From the NCBI GenBank assembly GCA_018302235.1, contig JAGVZW010000033.1:434-64433 (forward strand): a stretch of DNA of 64,000 nucleotides, written 5' to 3'. Source of the stretch: Candidatus Woesearchaeota archaeon. Its GTDB lineage: Archaea; Nanobdellota; Nanobdellia; SCGC-AAA011-G17; GW2011-AR18. The notes beneath the pieces were generated by a model that worked only from the letters and a program-made list of their open reading frames with translations, was not told where the DNA came from and did not search any database. The stretch's first letter is position 1. Each line of letters starts with the position of its first letter. Of this stretch, positions 41,341 through 56,136 are shown piece after piece. The position numbers and the translations under genes were made by a program.

Positions 41341-41452
41341 GCCTCACTAGCTCAGCCTGGTTAGAGCGCCACTCTCATATGTTTGAGAAATGAAGCATTA
41401 GCTAATGAACTAAGAAAGGTGGAGGTCGGGGGTTCAAATCCCCCATGAGGCA
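41341..41452 (+). tRNA. tRNA-Met (anticodon CAU) with a 37-nt intron at the canonical 37/38 position.
   Basis: Manual fold: acceptor GCCTCAC..ATGAGGC, D-arm GCTC/GAGC, anticodon stem CCACT/GGTGG with CTCATA followed by the intron (41380..41416), T-arm GGGGG TTCAAAT CCCCC. Confidence 0.7.
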
Positions 41453-45966: not shown

Positions 45967-47172
45967 TTAAATAAAATATAAAAATAAATTAGCAATTAAA
46001 TGCGCTAATATTGGATAAAAAATACTTCCTTTTCTAGCTAAATAGCCCATAAACAAAGAAAATATAAATAGAGCAATAAAATAAAGAATTACAAATAAAT
46101 AATCATTATAATATGAAAAAATTGTTTTTAAAAATAAAAAATGGATCGAAGCAAACAATAATGATTGTAATATTTGTGCTTTTTTAAAAGAAAATGATTT
46201 TTCACTTAATTTTAAAAGAATTAATCTAAACATATTTTCTTCTGTGATTGCAATAAATATTGGAGCAAATATGAAACTAAAATTTATGGGTTCTTTAATA
46301 ATATAAAATACATAACCAAGACAAAAGCCAAATAACAAAGATAGTAATATATTTTTTAAATTAAAAATAAAATTAAATTCTAATTTAAAAAACCTAACTA
46401 GATATATCGAAATTATTGTTAATAAAATTAGAATTATTTGATCTATAAAAGGAATATATTTTTCTAACAAAAAACCAATAAAACCAAAAAATAAATATAA
46501 GAATATTATTGCATTAATAGCTAAAATAAAATCATCTCTATATTCCTTTAAACCTATTAATTCCCTATAAAATACAAAATTAAAGATTAAACTTACTATT
46601 AAAAATGAAAAGAGAATAATTATTGAATTATTAATTAGATTTATAATTCCTATAGCTAATAATACAACACTAAACCCATATATTATAATTAATTTATTAT
46701 TTAATAAATCTTTTAAAATATTTCTGGCTAAATATCTACAACTAAAATAAGTGAAGATAAAAAAACCACCTAAATAAAATAAGATATCTAATAAAAATAA
46801 AAAAATAAGTAAAAAAACCATAATATAATCATTACTTTCTATAAAAAATAGAATTCCATTAAAATAATAATTTACAATAGAATAAATATAATTCCAGAGA
46901 AATATTCCTAAAAATACAAGGCTTCCTAAAAACAAAGAACTTATTAAAATATCCCTAAATTTTCTAATTAGTAAAAGAAAAACAAATATTAAAATAAGAA
47001 TAACAAATAATGTTTCAAAATTAAAGAAACTTACGGATGACAATTTATACGTTAAGAAATCAACACCAATTATACCTCCTGAAGATATAATCGCCTTTTG
47101 ATTCACCCACGGAACAAACAAAAAACAGAGAATAGATATAACTATGCAGCAGATTAAAATGTATCTTTTCAA
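45967..47172 (-). CDS. CPBP-family (CAAX protease/Abi) intramembrane metalloprotease with a long N-terminal membrane extension.
   Basis: TEENMFRLILL (EExxxR), LFASIHF (FxxxH) and ILAHLIANLF (HxxxN). Confidence 0.6.
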   Translation of the reverse strand: MKRYILICCIVISILCFLFVPWVNQKAIISSGGIIGVDFLTYKLSSVSFFNFETLFVILILIFVFLLLIRKFRDILISSLFLGSLVFLGIFLWNYIYSIVNYYFNGILFFIESNDYIMVFLLIFLFLLDILFYLGGFFIFTYFSCRYLARNILKDLLNNKLIIIYGFSVVLLAIGIINLINNSIIILFSFLIVSLIFNFVFYRELIGLKEYRDDFILAINAIIFLYLFFGFIGFLLEKYIPFIDQIILILLTIISIYLVRFFKLEFNFIFNLKNILLSLLFGFCLGYVFYIIKEPINFSFIFAPIFIAITEENMFRLILLKLSEKSFSFKKAQILQSLLFASIHFLFLKTIFSYYNDYLFVILYFIALFIFSLFMGYLARKGSIFYPILAHLIANLFLYFI

Positions 47173-47302
47173 ACCATTTATAAAATCCCCTATTTTAACA
47201 TCAAAAACAACAAAACAGCAAAATAGAATAGGAATAATTAATAAAAATAAAACACCTAATCCACTTAAGATGTAAATAATTGTGGTTAAAATATTAATTG
47301 AT

Positions 47303-47941
47303 TCAGATTGAAAATGTTCTATTAAGCTTAAATGTAAGTTTTCTACCGAGAATATTTAATATCTTAATTTTCTCACTCTTTAAGTCTTTAATAGCATAAA
47401 TTAGCGCCACAATAAATAAAGATTTGTCTAAAGATACCATGAACCATTGATTAACTAAACCAAACAAATATTGTGAAAATGCAAATAAAATTATAAAGAT
47501 TGAAAAAAACCTTAACCATAAGTTATTCTTTAAATAATTAGTTTTCTTAATTAAATTTGTTACTGCATAAACAACAGATAATTCTTTAATATTATTTTTT
47601 TTAGAGAAATAAAATGCTATTATTATTAGTATACTAGTACCTAATATCAAAGAAATATAACTAATTAATGTAGAATATATAGAAATATCTTTTTCTATAA
47701 AAGGAAGAAAGGTATCAATAACTAAAATATAAAATCCAAATAGAATTAACCAGTCTAATTTTTTATTCTTCGTACCTATGATAAAATTTGTTGGACTTAA
47801 CCTTAACCAAAAACAAAATAATAAAATTGCTGTTAATAATTTATCAATAATATTAAATGAACCTGGTAAAAGATTAAAAAAATCAAGAAAACCAAGGCAC
47901 AAAAGAAACAATTTAAAAATAATATCTAAATATTTATTCAT
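47303..47941 (-). CDS. Polytopic membrane protein, hypothetical.
   Basis: 212 aa with 6 or more hydrophobic segments. Confidence 0.35.
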   Translation of the reverse strand: MNKYLDIIFKLFLLCLGFLDFFNLLPGSFNIIDKLLTAILLFCFWLRLSPTNFIIGTKNKKLDWLILFGFYILVIDTFLPFIEKDISIYSTLISYISLILGTSILIIIAFYFSKKNNIKELSVVYAVTNLIKKTNYLKNNLWLRFFSIFIILFAFSQYLFGLVNQWFMVSLDKSLFIVALIYAIKDLKSEKIKILNILGRKLTFKLNRTFSI

Positions 47942-47971: not shown

Positions 47972-48762
47972 CTATTGTTTCTTTGTAAATATAATAATTG
48001 CAATTATACCTAATATTATAATAAATACAAAGATTATTGTTGTTAATGAAAACCCCCAAATAACAGTATGAGATGATACCCCTGCTATTGAATTCGAATT
48101 TGCTATTGGTTTATCAGAAAATGTACTTGTTGAAACAACCTCTCCTGCTTCAAGATTATTAAAATTATATTTTATAACGGGATCATTTTCAATTATTTCA
48201 GTATTATCTGGCAAAACTAATTCTGATGCATCTGCTACATCTTCTTTTGGAATCTCAATTATTATATCTAAATCACCATCTTCAGGCATGACATATGTTT
48301 CTTTTAATTCATAAAATTCTTTACTTTCTCCATTTTTATTAATACCTACATGTGTAATTAACTCTTTTTTTTCTGCATTAACTGGTCTTTCTTTTTCTAA
48401 ATTAAAAATTGCTGTTTCTAAACCTTTATTTGGTTTTTCTTGAAGTTTTTTAGTTAAAATAATTAAAGCTCTATCCCTTCCTTTGTCCTCTAATTTTTCT
48501 TCTTTTAATACAAAAGTTTCTGCATCTTCATCAATAAATTTTTTAGCAGCTTTTTTTTCATCTTTATCATCCTTGTCTTCTACTTCATCTTTATCATCCT
48601 TGTCTTCTACTTCATCTTTATCATCCTTGTCTTCTACTTCATCTTTATCATCCTTTTGTCTTCCTTGTCATCTTCAGATTCATTTGAACCAGCAAAGACT
48701 AAAGAAAAAAAACTAATTAAAAAAAATACTATAATAACACTAGAGATTATTTTTTTATACAT
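47972..48762 (-). pseudogene. Acidic-repeat, C-terminally anchored secreted protein gene disrupted by frameshifts.
   Basis: ATG at 48762 encodes a signal peptide MYKKIISSVIIVFFLISFFL and then stops. A second frame encodes SLVFAGSNESEDDKEDK. A third frame (48667..47972) carries four DDKDEVEDK repeats, then ...MPEDGD... and a C-terminal TM helix. The shifts lie at a T7 run and inside the 27-nt repeat array. Confidence 0.4.
48558..48675. repeat. 27-nt tandem repeat, about 4 copies, with the last copy degenerate.
   Basis: Unit tcatctttatcatccttgtcttctact. On the coding strand this encodes DDKDEVEDK. Confidence 0.8.
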
Positions 48763-48887
48763 ATATATATTAAGAGAAACCCATATATAAATATATAAGC
48801 AATGATTATATGTATTTAGTTTTTTATAAAAGAACTATCAATATGTCATAAATATGTAAAGAAATATTTAAATAGCTTCTTTTTTTC

Positions 48888-49013
48888 AAGAACTTAAGCG
48901 AGGGTGCCGGAGTGGCCAAACGGGGTAGAATTATATTGTCTTAAAACACTATAATACCCATACTCAAGTTTGAAAAATAATCATTGAGTCATCTACTGGC
49001 TTAGTGCCTACGC
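48888..49013 (+). tRNA. Class-II-type (Leu/Ser-like) tRNA 5' portion with a long anticodon-loop intron. The 3' T-stem and acceptor strand were not found.
   Basis: GCGAGGG acceptor 5' strand, CCG/CGG D-stem with loop GAGTGGCCAAA, anticodon stem GTAGA...TCTAC separated by about 62 nt, a long variable arm GGCTTAGTGCC, and GCAGG TTCGAAT. No CCTGC or CCCTCGC complement follows. Confidence 0.35.
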
Positions 49014-49256
49014 AGGTTCGAATTTCTTAAAAAATACAATTCATTTTTATAAACCTCATAAGTCATTAAAGCAGAAAAAATTAGAGATAAAACTGCTAAA
49101 GAAATATAAAGGTGTTTATGATATCTTATTCTTCTTGGATCTTTTATATCCTTATAAATTGTTGTAGCTAATCCAAGACACTCCTCTTCTAGTTCTTTTT
49201 TTAATTCATGCATAATTATCAAAAAATTAGGTTATTAAAATAGTTTACGCTTAGAA

Positions 49257-50748
49257 TTCACTGGTGTATTAAGTGGGCTTTTTTAAGAATAAAATATATG
49301 AAATATATGGAATATGGTAAAGTTTATATAGTTCTTATATTGCATATATTTATGCAAATAAGATATAATCCATTTAATCCTCAACAACCAGCAAAACCTC
49401 ATTTTTTTGTTGGAAGAGAACAGGAAGTAAAATGTTTTGAAAATTTTTTAGGTCAAACTATTTACAATTCTCCTATGAATATGACCATTACAGGAGATAG
49501 AGGAATGGGTAAAACATCAATATTAAATAAATTTGAAGAGATAGCAGATAATCAAAGAGCCTTAGTAGTTAATGTTTCTAATTATGAGGGTAATGTAAAA
49601 GATGTAATTGAACTATCTGAATTCCTAATTACAAATATTCAAAGAGAAATAATAAGTCGTAATCCTATTTCAAAAAAAATTAATGAATTTGGAAAATGGG
49701 TTAGTTCATTTAAAGCAAGAATAGAAGTAAAAGGAATTACAATAGCTTTAGAAAAGAAACAAATAGTTGAATATATTTTAAGAGAAAAATTAGAAGAAAT
49801 ATGGAAAAATGTTAAAGAAATGTATACATCTATTGTAATTTTAATTGATGAAGCCGAAAGTTTAGAAAATATGGATGGTTTAACTTTTTTAAGAGAAGTT
49901 TTTCAAAAAGTACAATCAAATTCAAATTATATGATTGTTTTAGCAGGAAAATTTAACTTTCCTGAAAAAATGTCAGAACAATTTTCTCCTTTAAATCGCT
50001 TTTTTCCTGCAGAAAGATTAAGAAGATTAACTGAAAAAGATGTTTCAAATTATTTAGAAAATAGATTAAATGATACTGAGGTTAATATTGACAAAGAAGC
50101 CATATATAATTTATTTAAAAAATCAGAAGGACATCCGTATGTTTTAGTTTGTATTGGTTTTTTAGTTTTCGATTCTTTAAAAACTAATGAAATGGCTATT
50201 AATTCAGATGTTGTAGAAAGAAGTATTTGGAAAATTAGAGGGAAATTATCTCAAGATTTTTTTACTCCTATGTTTTATCCTTTATCACCACAAGCAAAAA
50301 GAATAATATGTAAAATCGCTAAAGAAATTAAAGGTTTAAAATTTACAATGAATGAAGCTACTTTAATAACTAATATGCCTAATAATCAACTTTCTGGTTA
50401 TTTTGGAGAATTTTTAAAAAGAGGAATACTTACAAAACCAAGTAGAGGTGTATATTGGATATTTCATACACAATTTAAAGAATATTTAATACATAATTCG
50501 GATAAATTTAATTAGATTCTTTTTCAATAATAATCTTTCCTTTTTCAAATACAATCTTTAATTCTTTGTCTATTAACCCACTCTCTTCTATTATTCTTTT
50601 AGGAAGATTAATTCTATATCTAAAATACTTATTATTATTAATCTCTTTGTCAAATGCTTTTAAAATTTTCATAAATGGTTTAGATATCAGAAGTTTTTAA
50701 AGTGTTCCGGTTTCCGAATTATTTAAGCCCACTTAATGCACCAGTGAA
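49257..50748. mobile_element. Putative transposon-like insertion: 24-bp terminal inverted repeats flanked by an 8-bp direct repeat (GCTTAGAA), carrying one ATPase gene.
   Basis: Left end TTCACTGGTGTATTAAGTGGGCTT (49257..49280). Right end AAGCCCACTTAATGCACCAGTGAA (50725..50748), its reverse complement with 1 mismatch. GCTTAGAA lies immediately outside both ends (49249..49256 and 50749..50756). Confidence 0.5.
49298..50515 (+). CDS. AAA+ ATPase of the archaeal ATPase (Arch_ATPase/ORC-like) family.
   Basis: FFVGREQEV...MTITGDRGMGKTSIL is Walker A and ILIDEAESL is Walker B, with a C-terminal wH-like region. Confidence 0.6.
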   Translation: MKYMEYGKVYIVLILHIFMQIRYNPFNPQQPAKPHFFVGREQEVKCFENFLGQTIYNSPMNMTITGDRGMGKTSILNKFEEIADNQRALVVNVSNYEGNVKDVIELSEFLITNIQREIISRNPISKKINEFGKWVSSFKARIEVKGITIALEKKQIVEYILREKLEEIWKNVKEMYTSIVILIDEAESLENMDGLTFLREVFQKVQSNSNYMIVLAGKFNFPEKMSEQFSPLNRFFPAERLRRLTEKDVSNYLENRLNDTEVNIDKEAIYNLFKKSEGHPYVLVCIGFLVFDSLKTNEMAINSDVVERSIWKIRGKLSQDFFTPMFYPLSPQAKRIICKIAKEIKGLKFTMNEATLITNMPNNQLSGYFGEFLKRGILTKPSRGVYWIFHTQFKEYLIHNSDKFN

Positions 50749-50789
50749 GCTTAGAAATATTTAAATCTCTTTTTAATTTATATTTTGTA

Positions 50790-51440
50790 ATGAAATCATT
50801 ATACTGTAATGGAAAATATTATTTATGGAAAGAAGGAGATCTGCACACTAAAGACGGATTTCTAAAAGAAGCAGACATAAAGAATAAAACATCCGCAGAA
50901 TCAAATATAGAAAAAAAATTTTATATATTCGAGCCATCTTTTAATGATTTATTAAAAAAAATACATAGAGGACCACAAATACCCCTACAAAAAGATATTT
51001 TACAGTTATTAAATTATATTAATAAAGATTCTATTGTCTTAGAAGCAGGCACTGGTTGCGGCTGTGTAGCTTTAAACCTAGCTAGATTTGTAAAAAAAGT
51101 AATAACCTATGAAAGAAATAAAGAATACATTAAAATAGCCAAAAAAAATTTTAATTTATTCAATATAAACAACATTGAAGTAATAAATAAAGATATTTTT
51201 GAAGGGATAGAAGAAAAAAACATAGATATGATTTTTTTTGATTTAGAAGAACCATATAAACTACTAAATGAGGCAAATAAATCATTAAAACAGGGAGGAT
51301 ATCTAATTATCTACTTACCAAATATTCCACAAATACAAGATGTAATTAGAGAGAATAATAATTTTATTCATGAAAAAACTATTGAAATTTTAGAGATGAT
51401 TGGTCATACTGGATTTTTAAATATATTTAGAAAAATATAG
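50790..51440 (+). CDS. Class I SAM-dependent methyltransferase, TrmI (tRNA m1A MTase)-like.
   Basis: VLEAGTGCGCVALNLARFVKKVITYERNKEYIKIAKKNF resembles the TrmI/GCD14 SAM-binding block. Confidence 0.5.
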   Translation: MKSLYCNGKYYLWKEGDLHTKDGFLKEADIKNKTSAESNIEKKFYIFEPSFNDLLKKIHRGPQIPLQKDILQLLNYINKDSIVLEAGTGCGCVALNLARFVKKVITYERNKEYIKIAKKNFNLFNINNIEVINKDIFEGIEEKNIDMIFFDLEEPYKLLNEANKSLKQGGYLIIYLPNIPQIQDVIRENNNFIHEKTIEILEMIGHTGFLNIFRKI

Positions 51441-53722: not shown

Positions 53723-54118
53723 TTAATACTTCCTTTTTCTTCTATCTAATGTTAGAAGTTCAATTTTAAATGGATCTTTTTTTATTTCTTTAACTATTGT
53801 AGCTGGTCCAACAATAGTTAAACCATTTGATCTACCCAATAAAAAATTAGCAATTTTTAATCTGATCCTCTCAAATAATTCCTGATTTTGTTTAATGTTA
53901 TCAATACTGCATATCTCGATCCCCTTAAATTTTTTATCTATTTCCTCCATTGTTTTAGTTATTAATTCTGCCTCTTCATTAGGATCTAATTTTCCCTCTA
54001 TTAAAATTATCTTATCCTCTTTTACACTCCTTAAAATCTTTTTTAATTTTTCTTCTGTATTCAAATTTCCAAGTTCATGATATGGGATATATTGTAACGT
54101 TAACAATTTTTTGTTCAC
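53723..54118 (-). CDS. Conserved archaeal hypothetical protein, possibly DUF2073-like.
   Basis: 131 aa, overlaps the upstream GTPase stop by 4 nt and lies 3 nt upstream of the Zn-ribbon gene. Confidence 0.35.
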   Translation of the reverse strand: MNKKLLTLQYIPYHELGNLNTEEKLKKILRSVKEDKIILIEGKLDPNEEAELITKTMEEIDKKFKGIEICSIDNIKQNQELFERIRLKIANFLLGRSNGLTIVGPATIVKEIKKDPFKIELLTLDRRKRKY

Positions 54119-56136
54119 CTCTTTTTCACCATTTCAAATACCTTATCATAAAATTCCTCCATGTTTAAGCCCTTTTCAGCTGATATGCCTATAACAGAAT
54201 ATTGAGGAAATGCATCTTCTATTTTTTTTACATCAGATTTCTTTAAATCTGTTTTATTAGCTACAATTAAAACTGGAATATCCCTTGCAGCTAAATTACC
54301 TATAATTGTTATATTTACTTGATTATATGGATTTCTAGTTGAATCTAATACAATTAAAACACAATCCATATCATCCAACCATTTTATTGCATCTATAATC
54401 CCCTTTGTAGCCTCTTTCGCCCTTTCTTTTGCTTCATCTATCTTCATTTTAAATTTAAGAAAATCCTCATAATCAATCTTTGTAGCGATTCCTGGTGTAT
54501 CAACTAGATTAAAACTTAATTCCTTTCCCTTTGAATTAATAGTGATTTTTTCCTTCATATTTATTTCCCTTGTTTCATGTGGAATAGAAGATACTGTTCC
54601 CATATCTTCCCCTAACCAATCCTGACATATTCTATTTGCAATGCTAGTATTATGAGCGATCAGGCCATTAGAAATAATAAAGGTATGTGTATCTTCAATT
54701 GTTAAATCATAAATATAATCATTATATTCTTCTTGAGTTATTTCTTTAATTTCATCCCACAAGTTATCTGAATTAGTTAAAGTCTTTATAATTTTATTAT
54801 TTAATACTCTAGACATTTTCTCTAATCTATGATATGATATTCTATTATCTCTGTACATTCTAGCAATATGTTTATTATCTAAATAAAATTCTTCTTCTTT
54901 TAATTTCTCTTGTTTTCTTATATTTTCCAATAAACCCATAATAGGCAAATAAAACTTATTTCTTTTTAAACAACATTTGGATAGTTTATCTAATCTTTCA
55001 GCTTTATATTTTATTCTAAAACCAATTTTTTCTTTAAACAATCTGTGATTATCACTTCCAAATATAAATAAACTCCAGTAGGCTTGACCATTAATTAATT
55101 TTGATCTAAATCTCCCTACAATCCCAAATCTATTTAAAAGTAATTGAACTTGTTCTACCAAAATTTTACTTTTGGTACTATATTCAATCTGATTGCTAGA
55201 ATTTTTAGTTAATTTAGAAACATAACCCCCCATATCAAATAAAATTTGTAATAATTTTGCTGTTAAATTATCAGGTAAACCCATAAATTGTGAAGGAATT
55301 TGTTTATTACCTGAAAGAGATGGTTTGAAATTTAAACTTTTTTCTAAAAAATCAGTTAATGTTCTTGAATTTAATTCTCTTTCAGGCACACCATTATTTA
55401 TTCTTTTAATGGCTTCTAAATTGAATAATTTTTTTGTTAAATAATCAAAATGATTTAATGCGTATTCGTCTGAATTACTAAATTTAATCACGCTTTTTGT
55501 ATAATATGCTTCTGTAATTAGATAACCTATAAAACTAACTAAATCTTCATCTATGTAAGAAGGTATAATTATCTCTTTTTGATTATGAAATTTAGATATT
55601 ATTTGTATCATATTGCCATTAACGTTGAAACAATTTTCAGTAATTAATTTGGGTAACATAATGTTTGTTGCTAAGGATAACTTTTTTGCAATAGCAATAG
55701 ATTCATTAGCCTTTAAACCTCCAGTTCTTATATTCTCTACGCCATTATTTGAAAGCCTGATTAATGGATGTTCTGGTGTAACTCTTATTTGTCTACCCGC
55801 TTTAGTTAAAATATTATATATTTTTCCTTTATATTTTTGAGCATAAACAAAACTCACTCGTTTTGGAATTATTTTTAAGGTTTGTGTATTAAAACTTGGT
55901 ATGATTAAATTTTTAGATCTTACATCAATATATATTTCATTAAATGAATTATTATGGTTTACGCTATCAAATATTTCTTTTATTGTTTTAATTTCTCCAT
56001 TCATTAATACAATTTTAGTTTCTGGTGTAACACATTTTCCGCTGTTCGGTGGCCCATAAAGTCCTAATTTTATATTCTTCTTTTTATTAAAAATTGACCT
56101 TAAATTAAAAAAGAAAACCTTAAGCTTACGAATCAT
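54115..56136 (-). CDS. Small Ras/Era-like GTPase interrupted by an intein in the P-loop. The mature extein is about 211 aa.
   Basis: Extein motifs are GLYGPPNSGK|...|TSI (G1, split), DTPG (G3), NKTD (G4) and SAEK (G5). The intervening 462 aa begin with Cys and end with HN, followed by Thr. Confidence 0.65.
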   Translation of the reverse strand: MIRKLKVFFFNLRSIFNKKKNIKLGLYGPPNSGKCVTPETKIVLMNGEIKTIKEIFDSVNHNNSFNEIYIDVRSKNLIIPSFNTQTLKIIPKRVSFVYAQKYKGKIYNILTKAGRQIRVTPEHPLIRLSNNGVENIRTGGLKANESIAIAKKLSLATNIMLPKLITENCFNVNGNMIQIISKFHNQKEIIIPSYIDEDLVSFIGYLITEAYYTKSVIKFSNSDEYALNHFDYLTKKLFNLEAIKRINNGVPERELNSRTLTDFLEKSLNFKPSLSGNKQIPSQFMGLPDNLTAKLLQILFDMGGYVSKLTKNSSNQIEYSTKSKILVEQVQLLLNRFGIVGRFRSKLINGQAYWSLFIFGSDNHRLFKEKIGFRIKYKAERLDKLSKCCLKRNKFYLPIMGLLENIRKQEKLKEEEFYLDNKHIARMYRDNRISYHRLEKMSRVLNNKIIKTLTNSDNLWDEIKEITQEEYNDYIYDLTIEDTHTFIISNGLIAHNTSIANRICQDWLGEDMGTVSSIPHETREINMKEKITINSKGKELSFNLVDTPGIATKIDYEDFLKFKMKIDEAKERAKEATKGIIDAIKWLDDMDCVLIVLDSTRNPYNQVNITIIGNLAARDIPVLIVANKTDLKKSDVKKIEDAFPQYSVIGISAEKGLNMEEFYDKVFEMVKKR
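54649..56034 (-). other. Intein (about 462 aa) with a LAGLIDADG-type homing endonuclease domain, inserted after the P-loop Lys.
   Basis: Block A is CVTPETKIVLMNGE directly after GPPNSGK. The C-terminal block is THTFIISNGLIAHN, with Thr as the +1 residue. Internal LAGLIDADG-like motifs are LVSFIGYLITEAYY and LLQILFDMGGYVS. Confidence 0.6.

Follow-up and report, generated by a model that had tools for sequence, protein, structure and literature searches.

A 1.5-kb insertion without a transposase gene in a Woesearchaeota genome is probably a copy of an IS6-like transposon of DPANN archaea

A transposase-less insertion with transposon termini

We analyzed a 64,000-nt stretch of DNA from Candidatus Woesearchaeota archaeon (assembly GCA_018302235.1, contig JAGVZW010000033.1, positions 434 to 64,433 of the forward strand), which is called the window below and whose positions are counted from its first letter. 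The window contains a 1492-bp unit that is bounded by 24-nt terminal inverted repeats (TIRs) and carries an ATPase gene together with a gene for a small AbrB/MazE-like protein. This unit is most likely a copy of an IS6-like DDE transposon that lacks the transposase gene, the family being widespread in DPANN archaea; we estimate the probability of this explanation at about 85%. The termini of the unit are transposon ends, an 8-bp target-site duplication (TSD) flanks it, and DDE transposases cognate to these termini exist, while no transposase homologue was found in the window. An earlier reading of the same DNA, made from its letters without database searches (the sequence-only reading), had proposed a transposon-type insertion without a transposase. 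The proposal was confirmed, since the ends recur at many unrelated sites and relatives of the element encode a DDE transposase. The host genome has ~25–27% G+C and archaeal traits such as TATA boxes and an intron-bearing tRNA (41341–41452).

The left TIR and the right TIR are 96% complementary and differ by a single mismatch at position 11, which is T on the left and C on the right. The T is private to the left TIR; the remaining copies known to us have C, and one has G. These repeats lie exactly where the sequence-only reading had placed them. Beyond the two, no further copy with up to three mismatches was found in the window, and 100 dinucleotide-preserving shuffles of the window gave 0 matches to the TIR pair. 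The direct repeat GCTTAGAA, which had also been noticed before, is exact and abuts both TIRs. By itself this octamer is common (3 copies in the window versus ~3 expected), so its evidential weight lies in its exact placement at both junctions; from base composition we estimated the chance of an 8/8 match there at ~1e-4. The empty site can be reconstructed as ...AAAATAGTTTACGCTTAGAAATATTTAAATCTC... The features of the element are listed below; two types of end, A and B, were distinguished by the alignment described in the next section.

49249–49256, no strand: left TSD copy GCTTAGAA, abutting the left TIR and identical to 50749–50756
49257–49280, plus strand: left TIR, end B type, TTCACTGGTGTATTAAGTGGGCTT; its core is also found at other loci, where flank homology breaks at TTCACTGG
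49281–49293, plus strand: sub-terminal remnant of end B, TTTTTAAGAAT..., common to the transposase-distal end of locus L024 and to locus L016 in pairwise alignments
49319–49333, plus strand: TATA box AAAGTTTATATAGTT, probably the promoter of the ATPase gene; its nucleotide sequence is conserved upstream of the ATPase in loci L011 and L039, the promoter role being predicted
49352–50515, plus strand: ATPase gene, 387 aa from the conserved Met; its open reading frame (ORF) opens at 49298
50508–50672, minus strand: gene of the 54-aa AbrB/MazE-like protein; it converges on the ATPase gene, with an 8-nt overlap at the ATPase stop
50691–50701, minus strand: TATA box of the AbrB-like gene, TTTAAAAACTT; the same box, with the same spacing to the TIR and the start codon, occurs in 8 element ends
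50705–50718, no strand: operator-like palindrome TTCCGGTTTCCGAA, a degenerate TTCGG-N3-CCGAA
50725–50748, minus strand: right TIR, end A type; 21–23 nt are identical to ends in L013–L016 and L019–L023
50749–50756, no strand: right TSD copy GCTTAGAA; the tRNA methyltransferase gene at 50790 has its TATA box just downstream of this copy

The sequence-only reading had assigned a single gene to the element, the ATPase gene at 49298–50515. That ORF is present and encodes a P-loop ATPase, although the start shared by homologues is an internal Met codon, at 49352. The minus strand has a second ORF (54 aa) that is conserved in relatives, and thus the TIRs bracket two genes. Both genes are intact and under purifying selection: dN/dS (the ratio of nonsynonymous to synonymous substitution rates) is 0.13–0.17 for the ATPase gene and 0.2–0.33 for the 54-aa gene, with dS near saturation for both. 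The insertion point is 34 nt upstream of the tRNA methyltransferase gene, and the TATA box of that gene is intact. Near-identical promoter segments (AGAAATATTTAAAT...) occur at 48860–48886, before a tRNA-like fragment, and at 50753–50779, before the methyltransferase gene. The right TSD copy overlaps the second segment; the element therefore inserted immediately upstream of the TATA box. Matches to snoRNA- and miRNA-like Rfam models within the element were dismissed, as they scored far below the gathering thresholds and lay inside coding sequence.

The same termini at unrelated loci

Public metagenome, genome and viral collections were scanned for exact matches to the 20-nt TIR core CACTGGTGYATTAAGTGGGC. 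Further copies of the inverted repeat, which the sequence-only reading had suggested looking for, do exist: the core was found at 9 metagenome and 2 genome loci, the latter in metagenome-assembled genomes (MAGs) of a Nanoarchaeota and a Pacearchaeota archaeon. The eleven loci represent ~10 distinct sites; L017 is the window locus itself, and L019 duplicates L022. Viral contigs gave no match to the core. The terminus CACTGGTGCATTAAGTGGGC (20–23 nt) is common to these loci of DPANN archaea. Apart from L017 and L019, their flanks resemble neither the window nor, for the most part, one another, and similarity ends exactly at the outer TTCACTGG. This identifies the repeat as the terminus of a mobile element and not as a host regulatory site.

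At one locus (L024) a 4.9-kb element is complete: it has both TIRs, its own 8-bp duplication GTTTATAG, a transposase gene and passenger genes. The same MAG has a second TIR-bounded element, of 5.2 kb (L022), with an 8- or 9-bp direct repeat GGGGTATAG and without a transposase gene. Alignment of 15 ends revealed two types. End A consists of the TIR, ~25 nt, an operator-flanked TATA box TTTAAAAACTT and a small gene whose product starts with MKIMKVLDK; it is found at the right end in the window and in L014, L015, L021, L022, L023, L024 and L039. End B consists of the TIR followed by TTATTCTTTAAGAAT... and is found in L024, L016 and L013; the left end in the window keeps ~13 nt of this sub-terminal part. 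The transposase-distal end of L039 lies at most 68 nt from the contig end. Degenerate TIR-like sequences in direct orientation near the stop codon of the L015 transposase gene and in L011 were judged to be due to chance.

At two loci a single TIR copy was seen. In L020 (2283–3389) it adjoins an MNT-like nucleotidyltransferase gene with a 130-aa partner, and in L013 (3385–7198) a sulfatase and ABC transporter operon. No partner end was found within the 5–7 kb fetched for these loci, which may be one-ended remnants or very large elements.

The cognate transposase and its relation to the IS6 family

Transposases linked to matching TIRs, which the sequence-only reading had also suggested looking for, were found in L015, L021, L024 and L039. 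L015 comes from the metagenome Ga0209542, in which one allele of the window locus was also found. Next to its TIR, L015 has a homologue of the 54-aa gene, and after that a gene whose 303-aa product combines a zinc ribbon (CxxC..CxxC) with a DDE domain. Among NCBIfam models this protein matches IS6 best (E 2.5e-18), aligned over the whole model, and it scores 27.1 bits with the Pfam model DDE_Tnp_IS240 against a cutoff of 27. A sequence search of the PDB with the transposase returned nothing significant. The transposase family has 906 matches (clusters) in a public protein collection, mostly from DPANN archaea. IS6 was the best NCBIfam model for all 26 sampled members, with full model coverage and a best E of 1.5e-23. 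The four cysteines of the CxxC..CxxC motif, D123, D189, E231 and R238 are invariant.

The termini also point to IS6. An 8-bp target duplication is a hallmark of this family (PMC7986276), and it was found in the window and in L024; in L022 it is 8 or 9 bp long. Archaeal IS6 TIRs are at least 18 bp long, often do not start with GG and have G at position 7 (PMC6807381). The TIR described here (TTCACTGGTGCATTAAGTGGGCTT) is 24 nt long and has G at positions 7 and 10, as expected of an IS6-type TIR. When its end TGCACTGGTGCATT is compared with the TIR of IS26, GGCACTGTTGCAAA (PMC8477213), 9–10 of the 14 end-anchored positions match. The elements do not have the simple IS6 organization of ~0.7–0.9 kb with a single transposase ORF: they are 1.5–5.2 kb long and carry the AbrB-like gene and accessory genes. 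Thus, the transposon family appears to be IS6-like, with an approximate assignment that reaches curated IS6 membership in part. The family is not described in the searched passages of a 2026 survey of archaeal insertion sequences (PMC13343696). Apparently, this IS6-like family of DPANN archaea has remained undescribed so far.

Relatives with the same gene pair and the variable middle of the elements

The closest relative of the window element that has a transposase is L039, in which a transposase gene (minus strand), a gene for an ATPase 78% identical to that of the window (plus strand), an AbrB-like gene (minus strand) and a TIR follow one another. Positions 49289–50752 of the window are 78% identical to L039 at the nucleotide level. 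To the left of 49289, L039 has the operator-flanked transposase promoter and gene, and the window has the left TIR. Homology of the ATPase module to both L039 and L011 begins at 49289, so the junction between end B and the ATPase promoter lies within 49281–49293. L011 carries the ATPase/AbrB module with a remnant of the transposase promoter and without TIRs. In L041, the ATPase and the AbrB-like gene are accompanied by a degraded transposase (~30% identical). On a further contig (P0010) the transposase gene is directly upstream of the ATPase gene, beside GmrSD and EcoRI-type methylase genes. The sequence-only reading had the element carry the ATPase gene as possible cargo. The ATPase is not arbitrary cargo: the pair recurs in or beside the transposase-bearing L039, L041 and the P0010 contig, so the best reading of the window element is that of a derivative from which the transposase was deleted.

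The DNA between the ends differs from element to element. In L015 it contains the transposase gene only. In L024 it encodes a GHKL ATPase, a DUF4325/STAS-like protein, the transposase, an Lrp/AsnC-type regulator and small ORFs, and the first genes are the same in L023. The transposase occurs without the ATPase in L015, L024, L026 and L033, and the ATPase without the transposase in L040, L042 and L050.

The accessory genes of the relatives were also inspected. In L023 (432–1691) and L024 (1619–2878), the slot beside the AbrB-like gene holds genes for a 322-aa GHKL (HATPase_c_2) protein and a 95-aa DUF4325/STAS-like protein; with the PADLOC model of DrmA (DISARM), the HATPase aligns in the N-terminal region at E = 9e-17. 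L022 (1805–7009) encodes a 1403-aa secreted surface protein with BP74_N and peptidase-C25 domains and a 262-aa membrane protein; the AbrB-like gene is recognizable at its right end by its first 12 codons only.

Origin of the window element

According to the proposed plan, elements of the family would consist of end A (TIR, operator-flanked TATA promoter and AbrB/MazE-fold gene), a variable middle with the transposase and/or accessory genes, and the TIR of end B. The window copy would have retained end A with the AbrB-like gene, the accessory ATPase gene and, joined to the ATPase promoter, ~37 nt of end B. In the simplest history, an L039-like transposon lost the segment from the transposase promoter to near end B. 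A DDE transposase would have inserted the element by staggered cuts 8 bp apart at GCTTAGAA. If the IS6-type route was followed, transposition gave a replicative cointegrate that was later resolved by host recombination (PMC7986276). The window copy should now be mobile only if the cognate transposase is supplied in trans.

Several observations weigh against this explanation. The L015 protein scores 66.5 bits against a curated IS6 cutoff of 125 bits, and IS1 is its second-best model; it is these low scores and the IS1 matches that make the IS6 assignment approximate. For the transposase-bearing L015, L026 and L033, a second TIR was not recognizable above the AT-rich background. The nearest orthologue of the 216-aa methyltransferase outside the population is 53–58% identical, so there is no nucleotide-level empty site for comparison; no exact sequence of the window's methyltransferase is on record. 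The exact derivative is known from one insertion site, and the element is 100% identical in 10 of the 10 population contigs fetched, which come from several samples. Of the population contigs read for an identical ATPase, 22 of 22 sat at the window locus (10 shown). In the TIR scans, which relied on exact 20-mer matches, the junction of end B and the ATPase gene was found nowhere else.

When the transposase gene was lost relative to the insertion bears on how the copy arrived. It is quite possible, at somewhat less than even odds, that the transposase had been lost before arrival, and that the 1.5-kb unit was moved in by a transposase acting in trans, as a true mobile insertion cassette (MIC). 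Such cassettes are defined by mobilization in trans and usually have several copies. The near-minimal left end (~37 nt), the almost perfect TIRs and the intact TSD are expected if only the ends required in cis were kept, and weakly favor this history. A second transposase-less, TIR-bounded element exists (L022), and a cognate transposase with an identical TIR is present in the same metagenome (L015, Ga0209542). However, L015 has 32% GC, compared to ~26% in the window genome, and probably belongs to another organism, which makes it a doubtful trans source, and the window itself offers no transposase. The scans that failed to find a second copy of the end-B/ATPase junction also speak against a cassette. 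Moreover, an internal deletion after insertion yields an identical structure. With neither several sites nor an insertion polymorphism on record, movement of the transposase-less form was not seen. The sequence-only reading had the element mobilized in trans. The single site, identical in 10 contigs, does not bear this out, as loss of the transposase in place would look alike.

The AbrB/MazE-like protein and its putative operators

Homologues of the 54-aa gene are located beside the TIR in L014, L015, L021, L023, L024 and L039, and beside the ATPase gene in L011 and L041. A profile of 8 sequences matched MazE/PemI chains with E of 0.006–0.008. Other matches were weak: TIGR01439 (AbrB) gave E 0.014, PF04014 gave E 0.08–0.16, both below the cutoffs, and the L026 homologue has a weak precomputed MazE_antitoxin match. 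These weak matches suggest a DNA-binding protein of the AbrB/MazE (swapped-hairpin) fold.

The 13-bp palindrome TTCGG-N3-CCGAA occurs 0.76 times per kb in element regions versus 0.03 per kb in the window, which is a ~25-fold difference. Its sole match in the window is at 50705–50718, in the promoter of the small gene, and in relatives it brackets the TATA boxes of the AbrB-like and transposase gene promoters. Probably, the AbrB-like protein represses the element promoters by binding these operators; it was chosen as the candidate repressor because its gene is the one constant gene of the family.

The ATPase and its possible role in transposition

The ATPase is a minimal STAND/Orc-like P-loop NTPase with a C-terminal winged helix. 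In the fold ranking, the uncharacterized archaeal ATPases PAB2304 and SSO1545 came first (23.2 and 21.9), followed by NB-ARC/STAND modules (18–19) and Orc1/Cdc6 (about 17); TnsC and MuB scored 14–15, which is the generic AAA+ level. We know of no function assigned to PAB2304 or SSO1545. The protein scores 28.5 bits with the Pfam model ATPase_2 against a gathering cutoff of 33.2, and a sequence search of the PDB gave nothing significant. The PHROGs collection gave no convincing phage assignment for the ATPase or the AbrB-like protein. Both were also compared with the PADLOC models, and only marginal matches were obtained (mad8, E ~1e-3; PDC-S27, E ~8e-3). The sequence-only reading had offered defense as one function of the ATPase, and no PADLOC model claims the protein. 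In L050–L052, ATPase homologues are located beside genes of a HaeIII-like restriction endonuclease, a C5 methylase and Vsr. Together with the neighbors on the P0010 contig, this suggests that the ATPase family resides in variable or defense regions.

The other function offered for the ATPase was mobility. In this case the ATPase and the AbrB/MazE-like protein would be working transposition machinery, a target selector or regulator that acts with the IS6-like transposase in the manner of IstB, MuB, TnsC or TniB, and the window copy would be a remnant of the machinery and not a cargo carrier. We consider this improbable. It is true that the ATPase repeatedly adjoins the transposase, even a divergent one. 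However, we found no specific sequence or structure relationship of the ATPase to IstB, MuB, TnsC or TniB, and the fold ranking is unfavorable. In addition, many transposase copies have no ATPase, other cargo occupies the same slot, and distant ATPase homologues stand beside restriction-modification systems. If the idea were true, the elements would form a three-gene class of archaeal transposons, composed of an IS6-type DDE enzyme, a P-loop helper (an NTP-dependent DNA-binding target selector or immunity factor) and a regulator binding the ends or promoters, with the window holding a remnant minus the catalyst. The ATPase is probably an accessory passenger of regulatory or defense type that stands outside the transposition machinery.

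Two further explanations dispense with a single transposon. Two independent insertions could have flanked a resident ATPase/AbrB pair and later decayed to bare ends. The pair does exist without TIRs (L011), and IS6 elements often form compound structures, but these carry direct and not inverted copies (PMC7986276). After two separate insertions, the outer junctions should not carry one common 8-bp duplication, and the AbrB-like gene with its promoter belongs to end A in 8 independent ends, so that this side is not resident DNA. Such a double event is very unlikely. Least credible of all is that the inverted repeat is a pair of regulatory palindromes or terminators around a resident ATPase operon with GCTTAGAA repeated by coincidence, for although no polymorphism was seen among the population contigs and the octamer is common, the same 20–23 nt stand at unrelated loci of other genomes beside a DDE transposase and with independent 8-bp duplications, and L011 has the same gene pair without the repeats. 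A conserved palindrome without other copies was the finding that, according to the sequence-only reading, should have disproved the insertion; the unrelated loci and the linked transposase show the opposite.

The tRNA-like fragment and other features of the window

The sequence-only reading had placed the element right next to an apparently incomplete tRNA gene. The tRNA-like fragment at 48898–49027 (plus strand) is indeed incomplete. It lies behind a TATA box at 48867 and has an acceptor 5' strand GCGAGGG, a D arm, a GTAGA...TCTAC stem around a ~62-nt insert, a variable-arm-like hairpin and a T-stem 5' strand with the T-loop GGTTCGAAT, after which it stops. The matching acceptor 3' strand, CCCTCGC, is absent from the whole window, and neither ARAGORN nor Rfam called the fragment. 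A truncated pseudogene and a split, trans-spliced tRNA are both conceivable. The fragment ends 230 nt from the element, and the population contigs are all identical in the fetched flank that directly precedes the element.

A link to tRNA genes is not general across the loci. ARAGORN, which misses intron-bearing archaeal tRNAs, found no tRNA in any locus or in the window, and Rfam found only one unrelated tRNA in the loci, in L039, ~870 nt from the TIR. In L014 (159–240) the element end abuts an apparent tRNA 3' half (...CCCAGTTCGATCCTGGGCGGGGCCA, tcaa, TIR), where Rfam made no tRNA call. A tRNA-targeted integrative element was considered and rejected: there is no integrase, the duplication is not derived from a tRNA, the fragment ends 230 nt away, and adjacency to tRNA is not general.

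Three other features of the window deserve mention. At 48523–48673 there is a 27-nt tandem repeat with a 9-nt sub-period that encodes acidic repeats. The ORF over it varies among the population contigs (105, 253, 280 or 289 aa), which indicates a polymorphic repeat protein. At 45967–47941 (minus strand), an Rce1-like CAAX protease gene is represented by ORFs of 401 and 212 aa in the window and by a single 715-aa ORF in the allelic L001–L003 and L006; the split is either a frameshift or pseudogene, or a sequence variant. At 54115–56136 (minus strand), the allelic gene in L001 encodes, by precomputed Pfam matches, a GTPase with an intein and a LAGLIDADG endonuclease domain.

Discussion

With their tiny genomes, DPANN archaea are believed to rely strongly on the exchange of genes. 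To our knowledge, transposons of DPANN archaea are barely described. Taken alone, the window element is an unremarkable copy, decayed or non-autonomous; of interest is the DPANN-wide family to which it led. This family is large and comprises more than 900 clusters of the transposase. Its elements combine conserved 24-nt ends and the 8-bp duplication with an AbrB/MazE-like regulator, an associated operator motif, and an accessory slot whose content is exchangeable. This slot was seen to be occupied by genes for a minimal STAND-like ATPase, for a GHKL ATPase and its STAS-like partner, or for a surface protein of 1403 aa. The family may be a concrete vehicle for the spread of accessory or defense-type genes among DPANN lineages, and the 24-mer and the operator motif can be used as annotation markers for such elements. 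Among the IS6 elements in ISfinder, there are one passenger-carrying member (tIS), two miniature inverted-repeat transposable elements (MITEs) and few long members (PMC7986276). As classical IS6 elements almost never carry passengers, the family extends what IS6-type enzymes are seen to move.

Compared with IS6 and IS26, the elements share the 8-bp duplication, the terminus T[G/T]CACTGGTGCATT, which resembles GGCACTGTTGCAAA and has G7 and G10, and TIRs longer than 18 bp that do not start with GG. Their DDE(+K/R) transposases match IS6/IS240 best, and an N-terminal zinc finger is also known in some long IS6 members (PMC7986276, PMC6807381, PMC8477213). In contrast to that family, the transposases score far below the curated threshold and are also IS1-like, an additional AbrB/MazE-like gene with its own operators stands at one end, and 1.5–5 kb of variable accessory genes are present, whereas classical IS6 elements have a single ORF in ~0.8 kb (PMC7986276).

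The transposons with AAA+ helpers (IS21 with IstA/IstB, Mu with MuA/MuB, Tn7 with TnsB/TnsC, Tn5053 with TniA/TniB) are similar in that a DDE transposase gene adjoins a P-loop ATPase gene, as in L039, L041 and the P0010 contig. In the family described here, however, the fold of the ATPase is nearer to PAB2304, SSO1545, STAND and Orc proteins, most transposase copies lack an ATPase, and the ATPase gene is not always oriented the same way. The archaeal ATPase_2 (PF01637) proteins PAB2304 (PDB 2qen) and SSO1545 (PDB 2fna) are the nearest folds, yet they are only 14–17% identical in sequence to the window ATPase.

The concept of MICs and of a transporter IS is mentioned in the literature (PMC4337579, PMC5444012). 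The window element resembles a MIC in having IS-type TIRs and a TSD around coding DNA without a transposase, with cognate transposases that have the same TIRs in L015, L021, L024 and L039. It differs in that the derivative is known at one site and that its "passengers" also occur in autonomous relatives, so that it may be a simple deletion derivative. The sequence-only reading had called the element non-autonomous, cargo-carrying or MITE-like. Non-autonomous it is, and like a MITE it is TIR-bounded with a TSD; but MITEs are typically shorter than ~0.6 kb and have no coding capacity, whereas the window element is a single-copy unit of 1492 bp with two intact genes under selection (dN/dS 0.13–0.33).

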